From Patescibacteria group bacterium (GTDB taxonomy: Bacteria > Patescibacteriota > Microgenomatia > Levybacterales > GWA1-39-11): a stretch of DNA of 64,000 nt. The position numbers were made by a program, and so were the translations under genes. This document shows, in pieces, positions 12,360 through 19,150 of the stretch (position 1 is its first letter; each line of letters begins with the position of its first letter). Location of the stretch: positions 31 to 64,030 of the forward strand of contig DASZRG010000039.1 of NCBI GenBank assembly GCA_035549295.1, read 5' to 3'. Under the pieces are notes generated by a model. That model made no database searches and was not told the origin of the DNA. It was given only the letters and a program-made list of their open reading frames with translations.

Positions 12360-12713
12360 TCACTTCCCATTTTTCTTCGAACTCTTTAGAAACGTTGTGT
12401 AATTTTCGAGCGTTGCATTGTTACCGCCCCAATACGTGTGGTACTGAGCAAGCCAATCTTGCAATATGTGAAGGGTTATTTTGTTGAGTGTCAAAAAATG
12501 AGTTCTACCAATCTTTTTGTCTTGTACCAAGTTCGCAGTTTTTAGTATTCGGATATGCTTGTGGATGGCCTGAAGTGATAAATCTCGCATTGATGCAAGC
12601 TGGTGAACTGAATAGGGCTGAAGCCCGAGGACATAAACAATGTCTCGCCTATGCTCGTTTGCAAGAGCTTCAAAAATAAGATTTAGTTCGTTTGGAATAT
12701 GTTGGTCTGGCAT
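12360..12713 (-). CDS. ArsR/SmtB-family winged-helix transcriptional regulator
   Basis: ALANEHRRDIVYVL...SVHQLASMRDLSLQAIHKHIRILKTANLV is the ArsR HTH signature. Confidence 0.6.
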   Translation of the reverse strand: MPDQHIPNELNLIFEALANEHRRDIVYVLGLQPYSVHQLASMRDLSLQAIHKHIRILKTANLVQDKKIGRTHFLTLNKITLHILQDWLAQYHTYWGGNNATLENYTTFLKSSKKNGK

Positions 12714-12827
12714 AAACTTAACTCAGAAGTTAAGTTTACAACCAAAAAATATTTCTGTCAATCTTTGGAATTTATTGTTCAACTGACTCACAGTCCCACA
12801 GCGTTACGTTTCACTGAATTAGGAGAT

Positions 12828-15800
12828 CTATTTCTTCTCTGTCGTAGGAGTTACCACTGGAGTTTCTGTGGACGCCATTGTTGGCGTCGCCGCGGGTGTC
12901 GGGGCTTGGGCCTGTCCTGATATTGTCGGGGTCGGTATTGAAGTCGGAGCTAAGGTCGGAGTTGGCGTAATTTTTTGTGTTGGAGTTGGAGTTGAAGTCG
13001 GTGACTGTGTCGGTGTATTAACCACGCTTTGAGACATCGCTGGTGCTTGGGAAGGAATTGGCGTCGCAACAGGTGTTGTTGCGGGAAGCAACAAGCCTTG
13101 ATCAGAACACCACGTAATTTTTCCAGCAGAAATTGTTATATCATTCTGCCAAGAAGCTGTTTGCCCCTCTGTGTTAGAGTTTTTTATTGACGCCCCAGTT
13201 GTCGTACTTCCAGTACCACAATCTGTTTGCTTCCATCCCCCTGTCAGACCATTTTCATAAACAAGTATCCCATAATTACCTGCAGGAATTTGGTCAAAGA
13301 AAACCCACCCATCATCTGTACCGACAGTTTTTGAGGTAGCTGTCTGAATAACAGTATTTCCTGTAGTGTCTGTTAGTTTTGCCGTTGCACCATTTACATA
13401 TTTACCATCTGGCGAACCATTGCTCCCAATTTCTCGGACTCTAAAATGGATTCCACCTGCTGCTTGTGTATTTGGATTTTTGAGACCTACATCAGAACAC
13501 CACAAGATGTCGCCGCCAGGAATATGCAAATTTGATTGCCAAGCTGCTGTTTGATTTTCAGTGTTGTCGTTTTGTATGGTAACTGAATTCGTAGTGCCAC
13601 TATTGTTGCAGTCTGTTTGTCGCCAATATCCTGTGTACCCTTTTAAGTAAGTTGCGGCTCCATAGTATCCAGCCTGCACATTATCAAAGAATACCCAGCC
13701 ATCCTCACCATTCACTGTTTTTGAAGTTGTTGTTTGAAGCACGGTGTTTCCAGTTGTATCAGTCAGCTTCGCCGTTGCACCATTTATATATTTCCCAGTC
13801 CAATTTCCCGAACTATCAAATTCCTTTACTCGATAGTGAACTCCCCCATTACCGTGGAATCCAAGGTCGTAGCAATAATTTGTAACTCCTGCAACAATAA
13901 CTACACTATTATTCCATGCAGCCTTATTGTTCTCAGTTTGTGAATTTTGAATAGAGGCATTTGGGTCTGATGCTCCTGCACAGCTTGTCATTTTCCAAAA
14001 TCCTTCAAATCCCGCCTTGTACGCCATAAGGCCATAATTTCCAGCTGGAATATTTTGGAAAAAGGCCCATCCATCTTGACCATTGGATGCTTGAGTTGTT
14101 GTGCTTTGGATGACAGTAGAGCCTGTTGGATCGGTGAGCTTAACCGTCGCACCGTTCACATGATCTGTTGCAAGATACGATTTTGGAACATTTGGATCAT
14201 TCTCTATTAGATCTACTCTCATCGCCAAATTTCCAGATGTAACCGTTTGCAACCCCTCATCAGAACACCACGTTATTTGATTTGGCATAACTTTCAAATT
14301 ATTCTGCCAAGCAGCCGTGAAATTGTTCGTATTTTGATTTTTAATATTTGCGCTTTGCGTAGTGCCTGCGCCGTCACAAGTTGTTTGTTTCCAAGCGCCT
14401 ATCGAATTCCCTTTGTAAGTAAGTGCTCCATATTGGCCGGATGGTACATTGTCAAAAAATACCCAACCATCTTGCCCATTTACTGTTTTTGAGGTTGTTG
14501 TTTGAAATGCAACAGTACCGGTAGTATCAGTCAAAACCGCCGTAGCATCGTTAACAAACTTTCCAGTTGGATTACCATTTTTGTCTATATCCCGAACTCT
14601 AAAATGTATGCTTCCATTGCCAGTTGGCGTTTCGGTGAAACTAACAAGATATGCAGAGCTTGTCGCAGGAGTTGTGAAGTTATGAGACTGAGCGAGTTTG
14701 TCAGACCACGCGTTAAAGTTATAGTTAAAACCGTTCAGCGTTTGAAGGTTTGGAGTATCAAGACCGTGTATAAAACCTACAACACTTTCTACATTATACG
14801 GAGTGCTATGCGGGATACCATCTAGCATAAAAGTAAGACCGCTTACCGGGTAGCTATCAAACGTAAGATTAACCGTGTTCGGAGAAATAATCCTACTTGT
14901 GGTTGCTGATAGACCTGACGAGTCAACTACAGTTAGTATTATTTCATAACTTGTCTCGGCTGATGGCTCGCCAGTATTCGGAATTACAAAAGTTCCATTT
15001 TTAACTCCCTGTATTTGGTCTATGAATGGATGAATATGTGTTTGATGATGAAAAATAACACTCCAGGTGAAATCACTTGCTGGTAGGTCTCCGTCTTGCG
15101 CGTCGTTTGCTTCTCCGGAAAACGATATTGTATCTCCAGCGTTATAATGTGTCCCGTCAATCGGTGTGTCTATCTTTGGCACAGGAAGAGTCTTGCCGAC
15201 TGTTATTTTAGTGCTAGCGTTTGTCTTGCCTTTTGCATTACTAACCGTGAGTACAACTGTATATGTTCCATTGTTTTGATAAGTATGGGTAGGATTGGCT
15301 GATGTTAACTTTGAACCATCTCCAAAATCCCAGGAATAGGTAAGATTTCCACCTAGAGGATCGCTTGATCCTGCACTCGAAAAGGTTACTTTCAAAGGAG
15401 CAAGTCCGGCAATAGGATTTGCCGTAATTGCCGCAACGGGGGGAAGATTTGTTGCATTGTAAGTAATTTTGTACATTGATCCGGTATTTGAGCTAAAAGT
15501 CGAGTCAGCAACAGTTACGAAATACATGTTGCCATCTGGCCCATTCATCAAATCAACAACCTCACCAGCAGCATCATCAAAAGCATTGTCAGAAATAAAA
15601 TCTCCCTCAGAGTCAATTTTTAGGTATCTTATAAACCCCTTTGCGTAATCTCCATAAAAATAAACGCCTTGCATACTAGATCCAAGACTAGTCGACGAGT
15701 TAACATATCCACCGACAACTGCTGCCGATCCACCGTTATGCTGATAAGTAAAGAGAGGATCTATATATTTTCCGTTCGGAGGCGTACACGGACCCTCACA

Positions 15801-16556
15801 ATCAGGCCATCCGTAGTCTCCGCCTTTTTGAATTATATTAACCTCCTCAGTCGTCGCCTCACCGACGTCTCCAACAATTGGTCTACCATCAGGCAAAAAG
15901 TTAAATCTAAAAGGATTTCGAAATCCATATGCCCAAATACTTGCCTGTCCACCAGCAAGGCCGTAGAATGGATTGTCAGTTGGTATAGACCCATCAGAGT
16001 TAATCCTCAAAAGCTTTCCCTGTATATTTGATAAATCTTGTGAATTGGCGTTATTCGCGTTATTTCCAACTGATACCCAAAGCTTTCCATCCGGACCAAA
16101 GCGAAGTGTCCCTGATATATGATAAGTATTTAGTGTCTGAGTCGACTTTAGAAGAATCTTCTCGCTTCCAGCATTTATCGTATCCCCTGTTACAGTAAAC
16201 CTTGAAACTCTAAATTCATTAGGGGAAGCATTTACATATGCGAGGTAGACATAGTTGTTTGACGCAAACGATGGATCAAAAGCTATACCAAGCAGCCCAT
16301 GTTCTCCATTAGCATCAACGGGAAGTGTTATAGCCGGTGTTGCAGCAAGCGTTCCATTTTTATATATTTTGACCTCACCTGTCTTTTGAAGAATAAATAT
16401 CCGCCCATCAGGCGACTGACCCAATGCGTCTGGAAAGTTAAGACCTGAGACTACAGTGCTTTTTTGAAAACCTGTAGGTAATGCCGCCTGTACCTTTGGT
16501 ACAAAAAGCAATGACAAAAAAACTAAATATACTAGTACAAATAACTTCTTGAACAT
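12828..16556 (-). CDS. secreted 1242-aa multidomain surface protein: signal peptide, glucose/sorbosone-dehydrogenase-like beta-propeller, PKD domain, four ~128-aa Cys-containing CnaB-like (SpaA/carboxypeptidase-regulatory-type) repeats, and a Pro/Thr/Ser-rich C-terminal tail
   Basis: The signal peptide is MFKKLFVLVYLVFLSLLFVPKVQA. GLNFPDALGQSPDGRIFILQKTGEVKIY is the SGDH-type propeller start. LTYSWDFGDGS...HTYQNNGTYTVVLTVSNAKG is a PKD signature. Four repeats match the pattern HFRVRDID.NGNPTGKFVNDATA.LTDTTG..V.QTTTSKTVNGQDGWVFFDNVP.G.YG......W.QT.C......WCSD.GL. The tail is ...TPTQSPTSTPTPTQKITPTPTLAPTSIPTPT... Confidence 0.7.
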   Translation of the reverse strand: MFKKLFVLVYLVFLSLLFVPKVQAALPTGFQKSTVVSGLNFPDALGQSPDGRIFILQKTGEVKIYKNGTLAATPAITLPVDANGEHGLLGIAFDPSFASNNYVYLAYVNASPNEFRVSRFTVTGDTINAGSEKILLKSTQTLNTYHISGTLRFGPDGKLWVSVGNNANNANSQDLSNIQGKLLRINSDGSIPTDNPFYGLAGGQASIWAYGFRNPFRFNFLPDGRPIVGDVGEATTEEVNIIQKGGDYGWPDCEGPCTPPNGKYIDPLFTYQHNGGSAAVVGGYVNSSTSLGSSMQGVYFYGDYAKGFIRYLKIDSEGDFISDNAFDDAAGEVVDLMNGPDGNMYFVTVADSTFSSNTGSMYKITYNATNLPPVAAITANPIAGLAPLKVTFSSAGSSDPLGGNLTYSWDFGDGSKLTSANPTHTYQNNGTYTVVLTVSNAKGKTNASTKITVGKTLPVPKIDTPIDGTHYNAGDTISFSGEANDAQDGDLPASDFTWSVIFHHQTHIHPFIDQIQGVKNGTFVIPNTGEPSAETSYEIILTVVDSSGLSATTSRIISPNTVNLTFDSYPVSGLTFMLDGIPHSTPYNVESVVGFIHGLDTPNLQTLNGFNYNFNAWSDKLAQSHNFTTPATSSAYLVSFTETPTGNGSIHFRVRDIDKNGNPTGKFVNDATAVLTDTTGTVAFQTTTSKTVNGQDGWVFFDNVPSGQYGALTYKGNSIGAWKQTTCDGAGTTQSANIKNQNTNNFTAAWQNNLKVMPNQITWCSDEGLQTVTSGNLAMRVDLIENDPNVPKSYLATDHVNGATVKLTDPTGSTVIQSTTTQASNGQDGWAFFQNIPAGNYGLMAYKAGFEGFWKMTSCAGASDPNASIQNSQTENNKAAWNNSVVIVAGVTNYCYDLGFHGNGGVHYRVKEFDSSGNWTGKYINGATAKLTDTTGNTVLQTTTSKTVNGEDGWVFFDNVQAGYYGAATYLKGYTGYWRQTDCNNSGTTNSVTIQNDNTENQTAAWQSNLHIPGGDILWCSDVGLKNPNTQAAGGIHFRVREIGSNGSPDGKYVNGATAKLTDTTGNTVIQTATSKTVGTDDGWVFFDQIPAGNYGILVYENGLTGGWKQTDCGTGSTTTGASIKNSNTEGQTASWQNDITISAGKITWCSDQGLLLPATTPVATPIPSQAPAMSQSVVNTPTQSPTSTPTPTQKITPTPTLAPTSIPTPTISGQAQAPTPAATPTMASTETPVVTPTTEKK

Positions 16557-16646
16557 GAAACCACATTATATTATAGGTTTATACATTTTACAACAATCCG
16601 ATGTATACTCAGCTAAAATTAAGGTATATGGTAGAACTATAGGGGA

Positions 16647-17222
16647 TTAAATACTGACTGGCTTTCCAACTGCAACAAACCTCTGCGTATCAAGAAATCC
16701 CGTACAAGTGTATATAGTAATTCTTGCATCCCCTGTCGAGTCCAGAATACTGGTATTACTAGGTGCAACAACCGTCGTATAGACAATTTTAAATGTCTTT
16801 TTAGCACCATTCGTATAGGTAATATCGACCAAATCGCCAGGCTTAACGCCCGTAAGCGGTCCTAAAAGACTTGTCCAATTATGACCGTAAAGCACACTAT
16901 TTCCAAGCATTCCTGGAATAGGTGAGCTAATAAGATATGATACGCCACTTGTTGTTGCCTGCCATGAATTGTTCTGTATTTGAGCAGGATATATCGGAAG
17001 ATTGATTTTGACTTTCTTTATGACTATCTGGCGTGGAAGCGTACCTGTCGATACGCTAGGCGTCTCCAAAACATTTTCAAAAGACAGATTTTGGGGACTA
17101 TATCGCTGAACCATCAAAAAACTGCCGAATGCAATAAGTAGGATTCCTATAAATAATGAGGTTTTCGCGAAAAAGCGCATAAGTGCTCCTTTACTTGTTT
17201 TCGCGGGATTTAAGAAGACCAA
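16647..17222 (-). CDS. sortase (class E-like transpeptidase)
   Basis: N-terminal TM anchor. The active-site His is in VLYGHN, the Cys is in the TLxTC motif (ITIYTCTG), and the Arg is in RFVAVGKP. It overlaps the upstream LAXTG substrate gene by 32 nt. Confidence 0.8.
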   Translation of the reverse strand: MVFLNPAKTSKGALMRFFAKTSLFIGILLIAFGSFLMVQRYSPQNLSFENVLETPSVSTGTLPRQIVIKKVKINLPIYPAQIQNNSWQATTSGVSYLISSPIPGMLGNSVLYGHNWTSLLGPLTGVKPGDLVDITYTNGAKKTFKIVYTTVVAPSNTSILDSTGDARITIYTCTGFLDTQRFVAVGKPVSI

Positions 17223-17823
17223 TTACTACAAAGAGTATACCCGCTCCAAAAATAGAAGCTATGAACTGCAGATTACCTGTGTTAGCAAGTCCAAATGCAG
17301 ACGCACCTAGAACCGCGTTGTCTGATCGGCCATCTGAGCGACCGTCTGAACGACCATCAGAAAGGCCATCTCCTGGACCGCCAGGGTTGCCGCCCCCTAC
17401 TTGTGGGTCTCCACATGTAAAATTGGCATTTTGGGCCAAATATGGCTCAGGTTCAAGACCCCATGCAGATCCATCTGGAACATATATCCAACCTTGACTT
17501 GTCATGACCTGAATTTGAGCAGGATCCATATTGCCGACTTTTTGCCAGTTTGTCTGAATACCTGCTCCATTGTCTGCACAGAAACATTGCATTAGATTGC
17601 CATCTGAGAGTGTATAAACAGTATCTTTTCCTGTGTGAGTCGCAGAATCTCCTACGATACCGTGAGTACCCGAATCGAAATTCTCTTTTACAGTTCCTTG
17701 AGGATTAACACAATTAGGGAAGTCAGCGTTCGTCGCAGCTGAGGCATGGCTTACTGCGCTTATCAATAAAGCTATATTTAGAAGTCCAATTTTTATACCG
17801 TTTTTAATATTCATATTAGGCAC
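17191..17823 (-). CDS. LAXTG-type sortase-anchored surface protein
   Basis: N-terminal signal peptide, a Cys-containing domain, a Gly/Pro-rich linker with (SDGR)x3, then the sorting signal LANTG, a hydrophobic segment NLQFIASIFGAGILFVVIGLL and a positive tail KSRENK. Confidence 0.7.
   Translation of the reverse strand: MPNMNIKNGIKIGLLNIALLISAVSHASAATNADFPNCVNPQGTVKENFDSGTHGIVGDSATHTGKDTVYTLSDGNLMQCFCADNGAGIQTNWQKVGNMDPAQIQVMTSQGWIYVPDGSAWGLEPEPYLAQNANFTCGDPQVGGGNPGGPGDGLSDGRSDGRSDGRSDNAVLGASAFGLANTGNLQFIASIFGAGILFVVIGLLKSRENK
17321..17368. repeat. in-frame 12-bp tandem repeat x4 (tctga-cg-cc-) encoding the (SDGR)n linker of the LAXTG protein
   Basis: Units are tctgatcggcca / tctgagcgaccg / tctgaacgacca / tcagaaaggcca. 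Confidence 0.6.
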
Positions 17824-17899: not shown

Positions 17900-19150
17900 T
17901 TATTTTATGCCTAAGAAGAATTTACGGAGCTTAAATATAATATCCTCTTTTTCGCGTTTAAGGGTGATCGTCTGCTTACCGGATGGTTTGACTGAAATAG
18001 TCGTTCCGAAGTAGTTATCAGCCTCAACACGTGCACTCTCAGAGACTCCCACTATAGGTACTGTAAACATACCATTTTTATCAGTAAAGTATGTTTTATC
18101 GCCAATTATTATATATGCATTTGAAATACCATCTCCTAACTCATCAGAAATAACGCCACTCGCATTCTCAGGATTATAGGCTGTTTTGATAACTTCGGAA
18201 ACAGATCTTGCAGTTCCATTATCATTCCAGATAGATGTCGTACTGCCAATATTTGTCCAGTAGTTAACTCCAATAAGCTCTGGAGTACTTATTAGCTTTG
18301 AAAAAGCATCTGCGACCCACTGTTTTTGCTGTTCATCAGTCATATCTCCATTTATGTCCGGTATTGGTGCACCAAATTCACCCAAAACTATGCTCCCACC
18401 TGATTCTGCAGAAATGGCCTTTATATCTGACGTTAACTTTTCGGGAGTCGAAACGTAATGGTCAATAGTTACTACTCCATCCATTGCGGCTGTTGTCGCA
18501 TGATCCATAACAGCTCGAGCAACATCCCCGTTCATCGAGTCATAATTTGAAGCCACATTTTTGCCTATTGAGTGAAACGCTGACTTCGTAACCTTATATT
18601 CATCGATCATAAACTGTCGAAAACCATCAATGTCTCCTGTTTGTCTTGGGTCACCCGGTCCTCCATTCTCACACTCAGGACATGCAGTAAATATGTCTCC
18701 ATTTTCAAAAATGTCAGGGTGTTTGAGTATGAAGCTTTTCGTCATACTCATATGCTGTTCTCGAGTAATTTTGCTGTAGTTAAACCACCCTTCCCACCCC
18801 GAAAAATTACCTCTAAACCAAACATTTAAGTGGTATTTTCGCGCAGCAGCAACCCAATGCTCGAGCATGGGATAAAACTCCTCGTCATATGGCGTCGCAA
18901 TCGCGACATGTGTCGCGCCTAGATCTGCAATATTTTTAACCTGAGCATCAATTGTCGCCATAAAAGCTGGGTCGTTTAGCTTTTCGCGCGAAAGGTCACG
19001 AGAAAACTTCATCGTATCAATCGACTGGAATCTCCACCAACGCGTCACTGGACTGGAGGAAGCCCTATGACTCGTAAATAGTACAATTAAAAATATGATT
19101 GGAACGATAATAAGTAATTTACTTTTCATTTTTCTGAGTGTTTTCTTCAT
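17900..19150 (-). CDS. secreted putative glycoside hydrolase (clan GH-A-like TIM barrel) with a C-terminal beta-sandwich domain
   Basis: N-terminal TM/signal region. A candidate acid/base Glu lies in PECENGGPG and a candidate nucleophile in VLGEFGAP (xxExG), as in GH5/GH113-type enzymes. The C-terminal YIIIGDKTYFTDKNGMFTVP is carboxypeptidase-regulatory-like. The family assignment is tentative. Confidence 0.4.
   Translation of the reverse strand: MKKTLRKMKSKLLIIVPIIFLIVLFTSHRASSSPVTRWWRFQSIDTMKFSRDLSREKLNDPAFMATIDAQVKNIADLGATHVAIATPYDEEFYPMLEHWVAAARKYHLNVWFRGNFSGWEGWFNYSKITREQHMSMTKSFILKHPDIFENGDIFTACPECENGGPGDPRQTGDIDGFRQFMIDEYKVTKSAFHSIGKNVASNYDSMNGDVARAVMDHATTAAMDGVVTIDHYVSTPEKLTSDIKAISAESGGSIVLGEFGAPIPDINGDMTDEQQKQWVADAFSKLISTPELIGVNYWTNIGSTTSIWNDNGTARSVSEVIKTAYNPENASGVISDELGDGISNAYIIIGDKTYFTDKNGMFTVPIVGVSESARVEADNYFGTTISVKPSGKQTITLKREKEDIIFKLRKFFLGIK

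Follow-up and report, generated by a model that had tools for sequence, protein, structure and literature searches.

A putative exported GSDH-propeller protein with four rare Cys-pair repeats, encoded next to a sortase in a Patescibacteria bacterium

In sGDH, His144 acts as the catalytic general base and Arg228/Asn229 contact O4/O5 of PQQ; in AA12 enzymes, the arginine is placed differently (PMC6881789). Secreted proteins that join a GSDH domain to carbohydrate-binding modules are known from the T. turnerae secretome (PMC12055684) and from the fungal AA12 enzyme CcPDH (PMC6881789). Among stalk domains of surface proteins, the CLIPPER (DUF11) isopeptide domains have been described, and disulfides are common in such families (PMC12617251). 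Here, we analyzed a gene that combines a GSDH-type propeller with tandem repeats of a stalk-like fold. On balance, we favor a reading in which this Patescibacteria (CPR) bacterium exports the product as a multi-domain surface enzyme that has no anchor and is built as a head on a stalk. It would then be a genuine surface enzyme, though unusual only to a moderate degree, that joins a widespread head to rare repeats.

The gene is one intact ORF for 1242 aa, whose ATG is the earliest start codon past the upstream stop. Gene calls on contig CAZMXU010000021.1 of NCBI GCA_964570355.1 and on a Logan contig give an identical protein. A CPR origin, as assumed in the preliminary description, agrees with the TypA encoded in the window (the whole stretch of 64,000 nucleotides that was analyzed), which matches at 100% identity a protein that NCBI labels "Patescibacteria group bacterium", and with orthologues of the 1242-aa protein in Candidatus Saccharimonadales. 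The gene is indeed richer in GC than the remaining window (42.4% vs. 39.3%). Since each orthologous locus shows the same kind of offset (+2 to +8 points) and the tail by itself reaches 53%, this excess reflects amino-acid composition (G/A/T/P codons) rather than a foreign origin. The order of domains is propeller, PKD, Ig, Ig, four repeats, and tail, distributed as follows.

12828..16556, minus strand: whole gene, 1242 codons plus TAG stop at 12828-12830
16485..16556, minus strand: Sec-type signal peptide, aa 1-24, read from the sequence
15462..16484, minus strand: GSDH-family beta-propeller, aa 25-365 (PF07995, PDB relatives, conservation in 127 relatives)
15198..15446, minus strand: PKD domain, aa 371-453 (PF18911, PF00801, PDB ColH)
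14880..15185, minus strand: Ig-like beta-sandwich 1, aa 458-559 (AF2 model, Foldseek)
14625..14876, minus strand: Ig-like beta-sandwich 2, aa 561-644, with a conserved F..WSD..H motif (AF2 model, Foldseek)
14235..14615, minus strand: repeat 1, aa 648-774, Cys727 and Cys764 (self-comparison, AF2)
13848..14234, minus strand: repeat 2, aa 775-903, Cys859 and Cys895, the most divergent (self-comparison)
13458..13847, minus strand: repeat 3, aa 904-1033, Cys983 and Cys1020 (self-comparison)
13077..13457, minus strand: repeat 4, aa 1034-1160, Cys1113 and Cys1150 (self-comparison)
12831..13076, minus strand: Thr/Pro/Ala/Ser-rich low-complexity tail, aa 1161-1242 (composition, 53% GC)

The preliminary description had recognized the propeller, the PKD domain, the repeats, and the tail from this architecture, and had overlooked the two Ig-like domains (aa 453-647, 195 aa). 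Its prediction of secretion is consistent with the N-terminus, which reads MFKK / LFVLVYLVFLSLLFV / PKVQA↓A and comprises n-, h-, and c-regions, a hydrophobic core of 15 residues, and a V-x-A site at −3/−1. Read heuristically, this is an N-terminal signal peptide followed by an SPase I site (VQA↓A), a layout that is kept in the orthologues, and we infer that the protein is secreted. Kyte–Doolittle windows of 19 residues exceed 1.6 only when starting at positions 1-9, so that the sole hydrophobic segment is N-terminal. As the maximum across the last 150 aa is 0.68, there is no C-terminal TM segment, and a pattern scan that detects the signals of neighboring proteins found no LPXTG-like sorting signal in the 1242 aa. 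The anchorless P/T-rich tail had thus been described correctly; its 82 aa consist of 27% T, 22% P, 11% A, and 10% S and end in ...PVVTPTTEKK. Tails of the orthologues differ: some are P/T-rich and others S/T/A-rich, some are missing, and in some a dockerin takes their place. P0008 and P0154 end in such a dockerin, which would be compatible with non-covalent docking.

The assignment of the propeller, which is of the six-blade type, to the GSDH family (PF07995; soluble glucose/sorbosone dehydrogenase-like) is firm, with a match at aa 41-350 (E 1.9e-54, 185.6 bits vs. a cut-off of 25, profile positions 3-325 of 332). Its score for the NCBIfam subfamily TIGR03606 lies far below the cut-off (117 vs. 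434), and the propeller therefore does not belong to the sGDH subfamily proper. PDB relatives include 3A9G and 2ISM (E ~5e-31) and 1C9U (E 7e-28). Characteristic features are His146, Arg213-Asn214, the D230-V-G232 motif, and C253xxxC257. Residues were mapped by alignment to 1C9U and their conservation was counted across 127 relatives. H146, the equivalent of sGDH His144, is kept in 125/127 relatives and R213/N214, corresponding to Arg228/Asn229, in all 127; D230, G232, and E237 never vary, and E238, H273, and D303 hardly do. Such essentially invariant catalytic residues make an enzyme likelier than a lectin and disfavor the earlier suggestion that the propeller may bind rather than oxidize sugars. 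Other positions differ from the solved enzymes. Val231 occupies the position of sGDH Gln246 (or of the His of "EHGP") in a loop reading GDVGE. By manual alignment, the pair Arg406/Arg408 corresponds to E332/V334, where relatives have T/S and V, and the equivalent of Lys377 is not conserved, K306 being variable among relatives; the C-terminal blades align poorly to solved structures, and HMMER alignments are unreliable there. With a number of the PQQ/Ca ligands known from sGDH/Asd apparently missing, PQQ can be named only as a possible cofactor of this subfamily. The missing Arg pair does not exclude PQQ, since the AA12 arginine is also placed elsewhere. We found no biochemical data on any member of the subfamily in the literature.

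Evidence for the PKD domain is likewise strong, as PKD_4 (PF18911; E 5.1e-24, 84.6 bits vs. a cut-off of 27) and PKD (PF00801; E 5.2e-19, 68.5 bits vs. 23.5) both match. The stretch WDFGDGS...HTYQNNGTYTVVLTV noted before spans aa 409-437 (WDFGDGS, aa 409-415), and PKD domains of ColH in the PDB match the region with E 1e-24 to 1e-14. The Ig-like pair that follows was modelled with high confidence (AF2 model m3a6bdcf2b702 of aa 453-647, pLDDT 96.6); Foldseek retrieved only generic tandem-Ig matches, and a Pfam search of both domains reached no family at its cut-off. A nearly invariant HHxxHxHP motif lies in the first Ig-like domain (aa 503-510, nt 15027-15050), with H51/H52/H55/H57/P58, numbered within the aa 453-647 segment, at least 90% conserved in 34 homologues. 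Propeller, PKD, and Ig-like domains together form a cassette of ~620 aa (aa 25-647), for which at least 3078 proteins scored E ≤ 1e-20 among 8000 candidates; the 120 matches listed cover 93-100% of it at 42-58% identity. Homologues, named "PQQ-dependent sugar dehydrogenase" in databases, span Patescibacteria, mycobacteria, Chloroflexota, and archaea, and their C-terminal modules vary (PA14, GLEYA, DUF1349/ConA-like, Laminin_G_3 (LamG), dockerin, and others). Judged by these matches, the cassette represents a large, widespread, and experimentally uncharacterized family.

The repeats are rare: across 1.84 billion proteins, roughly 25-30 representatives of clusters carry them. Self-comparison of the protein produced diagonals at offsets of 124-132, 254-256, and 386, which bears out the proposed four units of ~128 aa, and BLAST between repeats gave 40-60% identity (E 4.6e-31 to 7.7e-55). 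No DNA-level repetition was found among the four, and the copies are therefore old and diverged. Orthologues carry 2 to 7 copies. Every repeat here has exactly two Cys, spaced 36-37 residues apart; across 61 full units, Cys80 and Cys117 are kept in all and 58 have exactly two Cys. One disulfide probably clamps each repeat. The preliminary description rightly saw this pair, and an addition of this kind is nothing exceptional, disulfides being frequent in stalk-domain families (PMC12617251). The AF2 model of repeat 1 (m48edc5da3178, pLDDT 91.1) is all-beta, and Foldseek places it closest to SdrD B domains and the CnaB domains of Gram-positive pilins (TM 0.47-0.55, none at E ≤ 1e-3). No single repeat passes a Pfam domain cut-off: SpaA scores 14.4-20.8 bits (cut-off 23.1), CarboxypepD_reg 20.1 (cut-off 32.3), and the best match, repeat 2 with SdrD_B, 23.2 (cut-off 29.7). 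The whole-protein SpaA sum of 41.1 bits exceeds the sequence cut-off, while no single stretch does. The next tier of matches to the repeat profile consists of tandem SdrD_B/SpaA/CarboxypepD_reg proteins. At the level of fold and clan, these weak matches (TM ≤ 0.55) point to an SdrD-B/CnaB (prealbumin-like) type. The label "CnaB-like" would apply at most at this level and does not extend to the isopeptide-forming Lys of the first strand, which is missing. At the conserved basic position 6 of strand 1, taken as its counterpart from its place in the sequence and not from superposed structures, 54/61 units have Arg and 2/61 Lys, and no other strand-1 column is rich in Lys; Asp119 in the last strand occurs in 59/61 units, and K27 in the third strand in 57/61, with Val in repeat 1.

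Two genes upstream of the 1242-aa protein complete the locus.

16647..17180, minus strand: sortase, 177 aa, directly upstream with a 90-bp gap (PF04203, E 1.5e-17)
17191..17814, minus strand: 207-aa LANTG protein, predicted to be secreted, read from the translation

The sortase contains its TxxTC motif in "ITIYTCTG" and reaches none of the NCBIfam sortase classes, the best sub-threshold match being class C. The 207-aa protein ends in LANTG, a hydrophobic segment, and KSRENK and probably serves the neighboring sortase as a substrate; it matches no Pfam family and has no similarity to the CLIPPER partners of other loci. A sortase also adjoins the gene of a relative in five loci (L008, L009, L012, L013, and L014), and in eight (L002, L006, L008, L009, L010, L011, L012, and L014) the gene immediately downstream encodes a small CLIPPER protein that carries a sorting signal. 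The closest orthologues (L001 and L005) have neither neighbor, and their flanks share no synteny with the window. The association with a sortase/CLIPPER cassette is therefore frequent, not obligatory.

In the surface enzyme that we favor, the propeller would do the work, as an extracellular oxidoreductase whose substrate is a sugar or glycan, with the conserved His as general base and the Arg-Asn pair holding cofactor or substrate, as in sGDH/Asd. PQQ, if it is the cofactor, would have to be scavenged; E. coli scavenges PQQ for YliI. The four repeats, each with a C-terminal elaboration of ~40 residues, may form a stalk that withstands proteases and force, keeps the head at a distance from the cell, and possibly binds glycans as well. 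The Thr/Pro-rich tail may be a flexible linker, perhaps with glycans attached. Any retention at the cell surface would be indirect. The gene is part of a sortase cassette, and in related loci a sortase and a small CLIPPER protein, itself anchored by sortase, flank the enzyme gene; the enzyme may be a partner of a sortase substrate.

A different role of the head seems unlikely to us, namely that the propeller is non-catalytic and binds a sugar or protein, like vertebrate Hedgehog-interacting protein (HHIP), within a fibrillar adhesin linking epibiont and host. HHIP chains do match significantly in the PDB (E 7.5e-12), conservation does not extend to several of the PQQ ligands seen in sGDH/Asd, and a head on tandem beta-sandwiches resembles fibrillar adhesins (PMC12617251). 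Asd-type enzymes match far better (E 5e-31), with Asd, sGDH, and HHIP matches mostly covering only the N-terminal two thirds (2ISM to residue 315; 2G8S and 7CDY to 348-349). PQQ synthesis would not be expected of CPR genomes, a further point for an adhesin. Against it stand the lack of an own anchor and the active-site pattern, i.e., the His, the Arg-Asn pair, and D230, E237, E238, H273, and D303 retained in 127 diverse relatives.

A more serious, still tentative alternative concerns the repeats, which might primarily be CBM-like modules that target the enzyme to a polysaccharide, e.g., a cell wall of the host or its own. They take the position of PA14, GLEYA, ConA-like/DUF1349, and Laminin_G in relatives, and show weak Pfam matches to carbohydrate-associated beta-sandwiches (fn3_3 of PL4, GBD_IRG7_N, X25). 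Single copies occur at the extracytoplasmic C-termini of two membrane enzymes, the PMT_2 glycosyltransferase P0015 and the DUF2339 protein P0020, where a spacer makes little sense. The highly conserved aromatics W51, F54, Y62, Y67, W75, and W103 would suit glycan binding, but may be mere core residues, the nearest folds are stalk domains, and a copy number that varies from 2 to 7 is typical of stalks. The two roles are not exclusive. We give very little credence to a sortase-assembled fibre in which the protein is covalently joined to the LANTG/CLIPPER protein as pilus tip or base. The sortase adjoining the gene here and in five related loci, the fold matches to pilins, and the sub-threshold class C match would fit, but the protein has neither a sorting signal nor a C-terminal hydrophobic segment, the sortase stays below every class-specific threshold, and a protein that only accepted the link would yield a heterodimer without wall anchor.

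Compared with sGDH (1C9U), Asd/YliI (2G8S), 3A9G, and 2ISM, the protein matches significantly along most of the propeller, least well in the last blades, and shares the catalytic His and Arg-Asn pair and, by prediction, an extracytoplasmic location. It belongs to a distinct subfamily, in which "GDVG" replaces "E(H/Q)GP", the C-terminal Arg pair and a Lys377 equivalent are lacking (by manual alignment, poor in the last blades), an EGxC motif is added, and PKD and two Ig-like domains always follow the propeller among the matches listed. With CcPDH and TERTU_2567/3803 of T. turnerae, it has in common a secreted GSDH-type propeller joined to non-catalytic targeting modules (PMC6881789, PMC12055684), whereas it lacks a cytochrome domain and a recognized CBM, shows low sequence similarity, and belongs to a CPR bacterium for which no connection with lignocellulose is apparent. 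Like sortase-dependent Gram-positive surface proteins and CLIPPER (DUF11) proteins, it has a sortase and small LPXTG-type substrates in its neighborhood; unlike them, it carries no sorting signal, and the LANTG protein of the window is not a CLIPPER. The repeats resemble SdrD B (PF17210), SpaA (PF17802), and CarboxypepD_reg (PF13620) in their probable fold class (Foldseek TM 0.52-0.55 to SdrD B/pilin CnaB), in the sequence logic "L.D..G..v....Td.dG.y.F.nv..G.Y", and in tandem arrangement. They differ in that only positions ~15-95 of 127 match, every unit scoring below the Pfam cut-offs, and in the Arg in place of the strand-A Lys, the invariant Cys pair, and the specific C-terminal ~40 residues.

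The gene occupies the span given in the preliminary description (12828..16556) as a single unbroken open reading frame of 1242 codons on the (-) strand, starting at the earliest start codon past the upstream stop, and the identical 1242-aa protein is also called on NCBI GCA_964570355.1 and on an independent Logan assembly. Its sole hydrophobic stretch is the N-terminal MFKK-LFVLVYLVFLSLLFV-PKVQA/A, which reads as a Sec-type signal peptide, in line with the signal peptide noted earlier; the call is heuristic, and orthologues have the same layout. Since hydrophobicity is confined to the N-terminus, the protein has neither a membrane anchor nor an LPXTG signal. The tail was correctly described as Pro/Thr-rich and lacking both elements: its 82 residues contain 27% Thr and 22% Pro and are not hydrophobic. 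The gene is indeed GC-richer than its surroundings (42.4% vs. 39.3% for the remainder of the window; 53% for the tail alone). As this offset recurs in every orthologous locus, we attribute the excess to codon composition, driven by the tail and a G/A/T/P-rich composition, and discarded horizontal transfer. An Rfam scan of the window detected only tRNAs, all away from the gene, and a promoter/terminator scan yielded no more sites than shuffled sequences. The following features flank the gene:

16565-16593, (-) strand: promoter-like TTGTAA-17-TATAAT, a consensus match only, with the -10 box ending 9 nt 5' of the gene's ATG
12360-12713, (-) strand: ArsR-type HTH gene

A transcript from the former site could be nearly leaderless. 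Beside the ArsR-type gene, a perfect 24-bp palindrome, AAACTTAACTTCTGAGTTAAGTTT (12714-12737, (-) strand), ends one base 5' of the ATG and is probably the repressor's own operator; a promoter-like TTGACA-17-TAAACT site (12733-12761) lies just upstream.

The protein is arranged in the order signal peptide, propeller, PKD, Ig, Ig, four repeats, and tail. Pfam confirmed the SGDH-type propeller (GSDH, aa 41-350, E 1.9e-54) and the PKD domain (aa 371-453, E 5e-24). The parts named in the preliminary description were thus correct, but two Ig-like domains (aa 453-647) had been overlooked. This region has no Pfam assignment; modelled from an alignment of 34 homologues, it forms two beta-sandwiches (pLDDT 96.6), whose PDB matches were no more specific than tandem Ig-like domains of pilins and adhesins or pairs of FN3 domains. 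The first Ig-like domain carries a possible metal site within a family of more than 3000 proteins:

15027-15050, (-) strand: HHxxHxHP motif (aa 503-510), at least 90% conserved in the 34 homologues, which come from bacteria and archaea

Many other proteins share the N-terminal 620 aa as a cassette. When aa 25-647 were searched against a 5.8-billion-protein collection, 3078 of the 8000 candidates scored reached E <= 1e-20, and the best 120 of these align over 93-100% of the query with identities of 42-58%. Their labels include Patescibacteria (among them Saccharimonadales, Parcubacteria, and Minisyncoccia) as well as Mycobacterium/Mycolicibacterium, Ktedonobacteraceae, Micromonosporaceae, and Nitrosopumilaceae. 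Where database names are given, they read 'PQQ-dependent sugar dehydrogenase' or 'glucose/arabinose dehydrogenase'. The modules C-terminal to the cassette vary, including PA14, GLEYA, DUF1349/ConA-like, Laminin_G_3, dockerin, and others.

It had been suggested that the propeller may bind rather than oxidise sugars. We aligned it to sGDH 1C9U, whose chain numbering equals the literature numbering, and took residue roles from PMC6881789. H146 corresponds to the catalytic His144 and R213/N214 to Arg228/Asn229. When 127 relatives were aligned with MAFFT, 125 of them retained H146 and every one retained R213 and N214; D230, G232, and E237 do not vary at all, and E238, H273, and D303 hardly do. This active-site pattern argues against mere binding. 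The non-catalytic precedent, HHIP, matches far more weakly (E 7.5e-12) than the aldose sugar dehydrogenases (Asd; 5e-31), and we disfavour a pure binder. One further propeller feature could form a short disulfide-closed loop, or contribute a metal ligand, close to the active-site face:

15786-15800, (-) strand: C253xxxC257 (aa 253-257), adjoining the invariant E254/G255; C257 is conserved in 93% of the 127 relatives

A BLOSUM62 self-comparison of the protein gave diagonals at offsets of ~128, ~256, and ~386, which bears out the four ~128-aa repeats reported previously. A profile set their limits at 648-774, 775-903, 904-1033, and 1034-1160, and pairwise identities amount to 40-60% (BLAST E 5e-31 to 8e-55). 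Tandem Repeats Finder detected no DNA-level tandem repeats; the repeats show only in the protein, and the duplication is therefore old. AlphaFold modelled a single repeat (11-unit alignment) as all-beta (pLDDT 91). Foldseek searches of this model against the PDB returned Gram-positive pilin CnaB domains (EbpB, SpaC, SpaD, SpaA, and RrgB), transthyretin, and SdrD B domains (best TM 0.52-0.55), with nothing at E <= 1e-3. Single repeats missed every Pfam cut-off:

SpaA: 14-21 bits (cut-off 23.1 bits)
SdrD_B: 23.2 bits (cut-off 29.7 bits)
CarboxypepD_reg: 20 bits (cut-off 32.3 bits)

The proposed CnaB likeness may thus hold at the level of the nearest folds (CnaB and SdrD B), but the repeats stay below the family cut-offs and have no counterpart of the isopeptide-forming strand-A Lys of CnaB domains. 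Run exhaustively with HMMER over 1.84 billion cluster representatives, the repeat profile retrieved 188 proteins at E <= 1e-3; ~25-30 of them match the full unit and the others positions ~15-95 only, and the partial matches that were checked are tandem SdrD_B/SpaA/CarboxypepD_reg proteins. A word-indexed search of 5.8 billion clusters found two relatives only. From these searches and the fold matches, the repeat is therefore probably a rare offshoot of prealbumin/CnaB-fold stalk domains with its own C-terminal ~40 residues, an uncurated and seldom seen form of a known fold.

Conservation was analyzed in 61 full units from ~30 proteins. Cys80 and Cys117 (unit numbering) are present in all 61, with exactly two Cys in 58, and probably form a structural disulfide. 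The added Cys pair of the preliminary description is hence real but not exceptional, because disulfides in such stalk domains have been documented already (PMC12617251). Position 6 is Arg in 54 and Lys in 2 of the 61 units, and Asp119 in the last strand is near-invariant; an Arg-Asp salt bridge that would replace the isopeptide is an attractive idea. Full units mostly occur downstream of the GSDH-PKD-Ig-Ig cassette in 2 to 7 copies. Single units are also found C-terminal on membrane proteins (a PMT_2 glycosyltransferase and a DUF2339 protein) and in large proteins without Pfam matches (Pfam checked for P0012 only). Single Cys-pair domains in related proteins are:

P0015 aa 584-705; P0020 aa 615-744; P0014 aa 598-718
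P0012 aa 74-204; P0013 aa 1082-1212 (extra CxxC inserted in both)

Since single copies sit on membrane proteins, and the repeats take the place where relatives have lectin-like modules, a glycan-binding role is possible. As a compact, very rare, and probably disulfide-stabilised stalk or binding domain, the repeat could be curated as a new family.

Directly upstream of the gene, beginning with the sortase gene, a same-strand run includes:

16647-17180, (-) strand: sortase (PF04203, E 1.5e-17)
17191-17814, (-) strand: 207-aa predicted secreted Cys-containing protein with SDGR repeats, upstream of the sortase
17900-19150, (-) strand: 416-aa protein with an N-terminal hydrophobic segment, opening the run, which continues to the sortase and then the enzyme gene

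The 207-aa protein ends in LANTG, a hydrophobic segment, and KSRENK, which together make a sorting signal. The 416-aa protein has no Pfam/NCBIfam family, apart from a faint CarboxypepD_reg-like C-terminus. Among the related loci carrying homologues (L numbers), L008, L009, L012, and L014 have a sortase gene immediately 5' of the enzyme gene, and L013 has one immediately 3' of it. In L002, L006, L008, L009, L010, L011, L012, and L014, the next gene downstream encodes a CLIPPER (PF01345) protein of ~210-250 aa, which bears a signal peptide as well as a sorting signal that reads LPVTG, LPKTG, TPATG, or TPPTG. The recurrent cassette regions are:

L008 7100-12677; L009 5545-11663; L012 3220-8255
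L014 4866-8963; L013 6001-9407; L010 2190-7400
L011 5461-10394; L006 1-1595; L002 129-2895

Because the L014 enzyme (P0153) has no Cys repeats, the sortase/CLIPPER cassette goes with the N-terminal enzyme unit. Neither sortase nor CLIPPER neighbours were found at the closest orthologue loci, L001 and L005. Conserved synteny was rejected, as no flanking genes matched window genes at E < 1e-8 in L001, L002, and L005-L009, the loci compared; what is conserved between loci are gene kinds (sortase, CLIPPER), not orthologous flanks. The LANTG protein is likewise no CLIPPER homologue, having no Pfam family and no similarity to the CLIPPER partners of other loci. In the simplest reading, the anchorless enzyme would be co-expressed with a small sortase-anchored protein and perhaps docked to it, the non-homologous LANTG protein taking the place of the CLIPPER partner in the window. 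Two relatives terminate in a dockerin.

Regarding lineage, the window's TypA is 100% identical to an NCBI protein labelled 'Patescibacteria group bacterium', which bears out a CPR origin. The nearest named relatives of this TypA are Candidatus Levybacteria and Woesebacteria (75-77% identity), which makes a Microgenomatia-like source likelier than Saccharimonadia. Candidatus Saccharimonadales (L006/L007; P0152) have orthologues of the enzyme with the same architecture. Further orthologues (46-66% identity) stem from MAGs labelled 'uncultured Gammaproteobacteria bacterium' (L005, L008, and L009). L008 and L009 share the sortase/CLIPPER cassette with Patescibacteria loci, and all three labels are probably wrong. 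The L001 orthologue (GCA_964616095.1, 9072-12080) contains an N run, i.e., an assembly gap, within its propeller/PKD region, which explains P0001 (706 aa) as a truncated gene call.

CPR/Patescibacteria live attached to other cells, and their surface proteins are, to our knowledge, very poorly known. A joint reading would make the protein the enzymatic head of a Patescibacteria-typical three-gene module of a sortase, an anchorless GSDH-type oxidoreductase, and a small sortase-anchored partner, usually CLIPPER and here the LANTG protein. By way of the wall-anchored partner, the enzyme would stay on the surface of the epibiont after secretion and there modify envelope glycans, either the host's or the epibiont's own. 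The repeats, each clamped by its Cys pair, would make up a domain family not described before, with the disulfide, and perhaps an Arg6-Asp119 salt bridge, in place of the CnaB isopeptide, and HHxxHxHP would be a metal (e.g., copper) site acting as built-in electron acceptor for a large, as yet uncharacterised group of redox enzymes that work outside the cell. That all of this holds together is unlikely in our estimation. Judged by its conserved active-site signature, the protein is a candidate surface enzyme, one of over 3000 secreted proteins in its family, and knowing what a single member acts on, which cofactor it uses, and how it is tethered would shed light on all the others. The active site, HHxxHxHP, and the sortase/CLIPPER cassette are testable handles on CPR surface biology.

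Compared to known systems, the propeller departs from sGDH in several respects. The E(Q/H)GP loop of sGDH and Asd enzymes is replaced by GDVGE, Lys377 is not conserved among the 127 relatives, and no conserved residues appear to correspond to the C-terminal Arg406/Arg408 pair; HMMER alignment of these blades was unreliable, and manual alignment paired 'RYRDVIASPDG' with 'GEVVDLMNGPDG'. Fungal AA12 pyranose dehydrogenases likewise take an Arg from a different position (PMC6881789), and PQQ is a possible cofactor here. Our literature search, aimed at characterised GSDH-PKD proteins and at any Saccharibacteria link, returned nothing specific and no experimental study of a family member. The predicted enzymatic head adds a new member to a very large family that is named yet unstudied. 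Current ideas are not overturned, and little here should surprise the specialist: each part can be recognised as a variant of something known, with the GSDH-CBM(-cytochrome) proteins that Teredinibacter turnerae secretes (PMC12055684) and AA12 (PMC6881789) as the nearest precedents.
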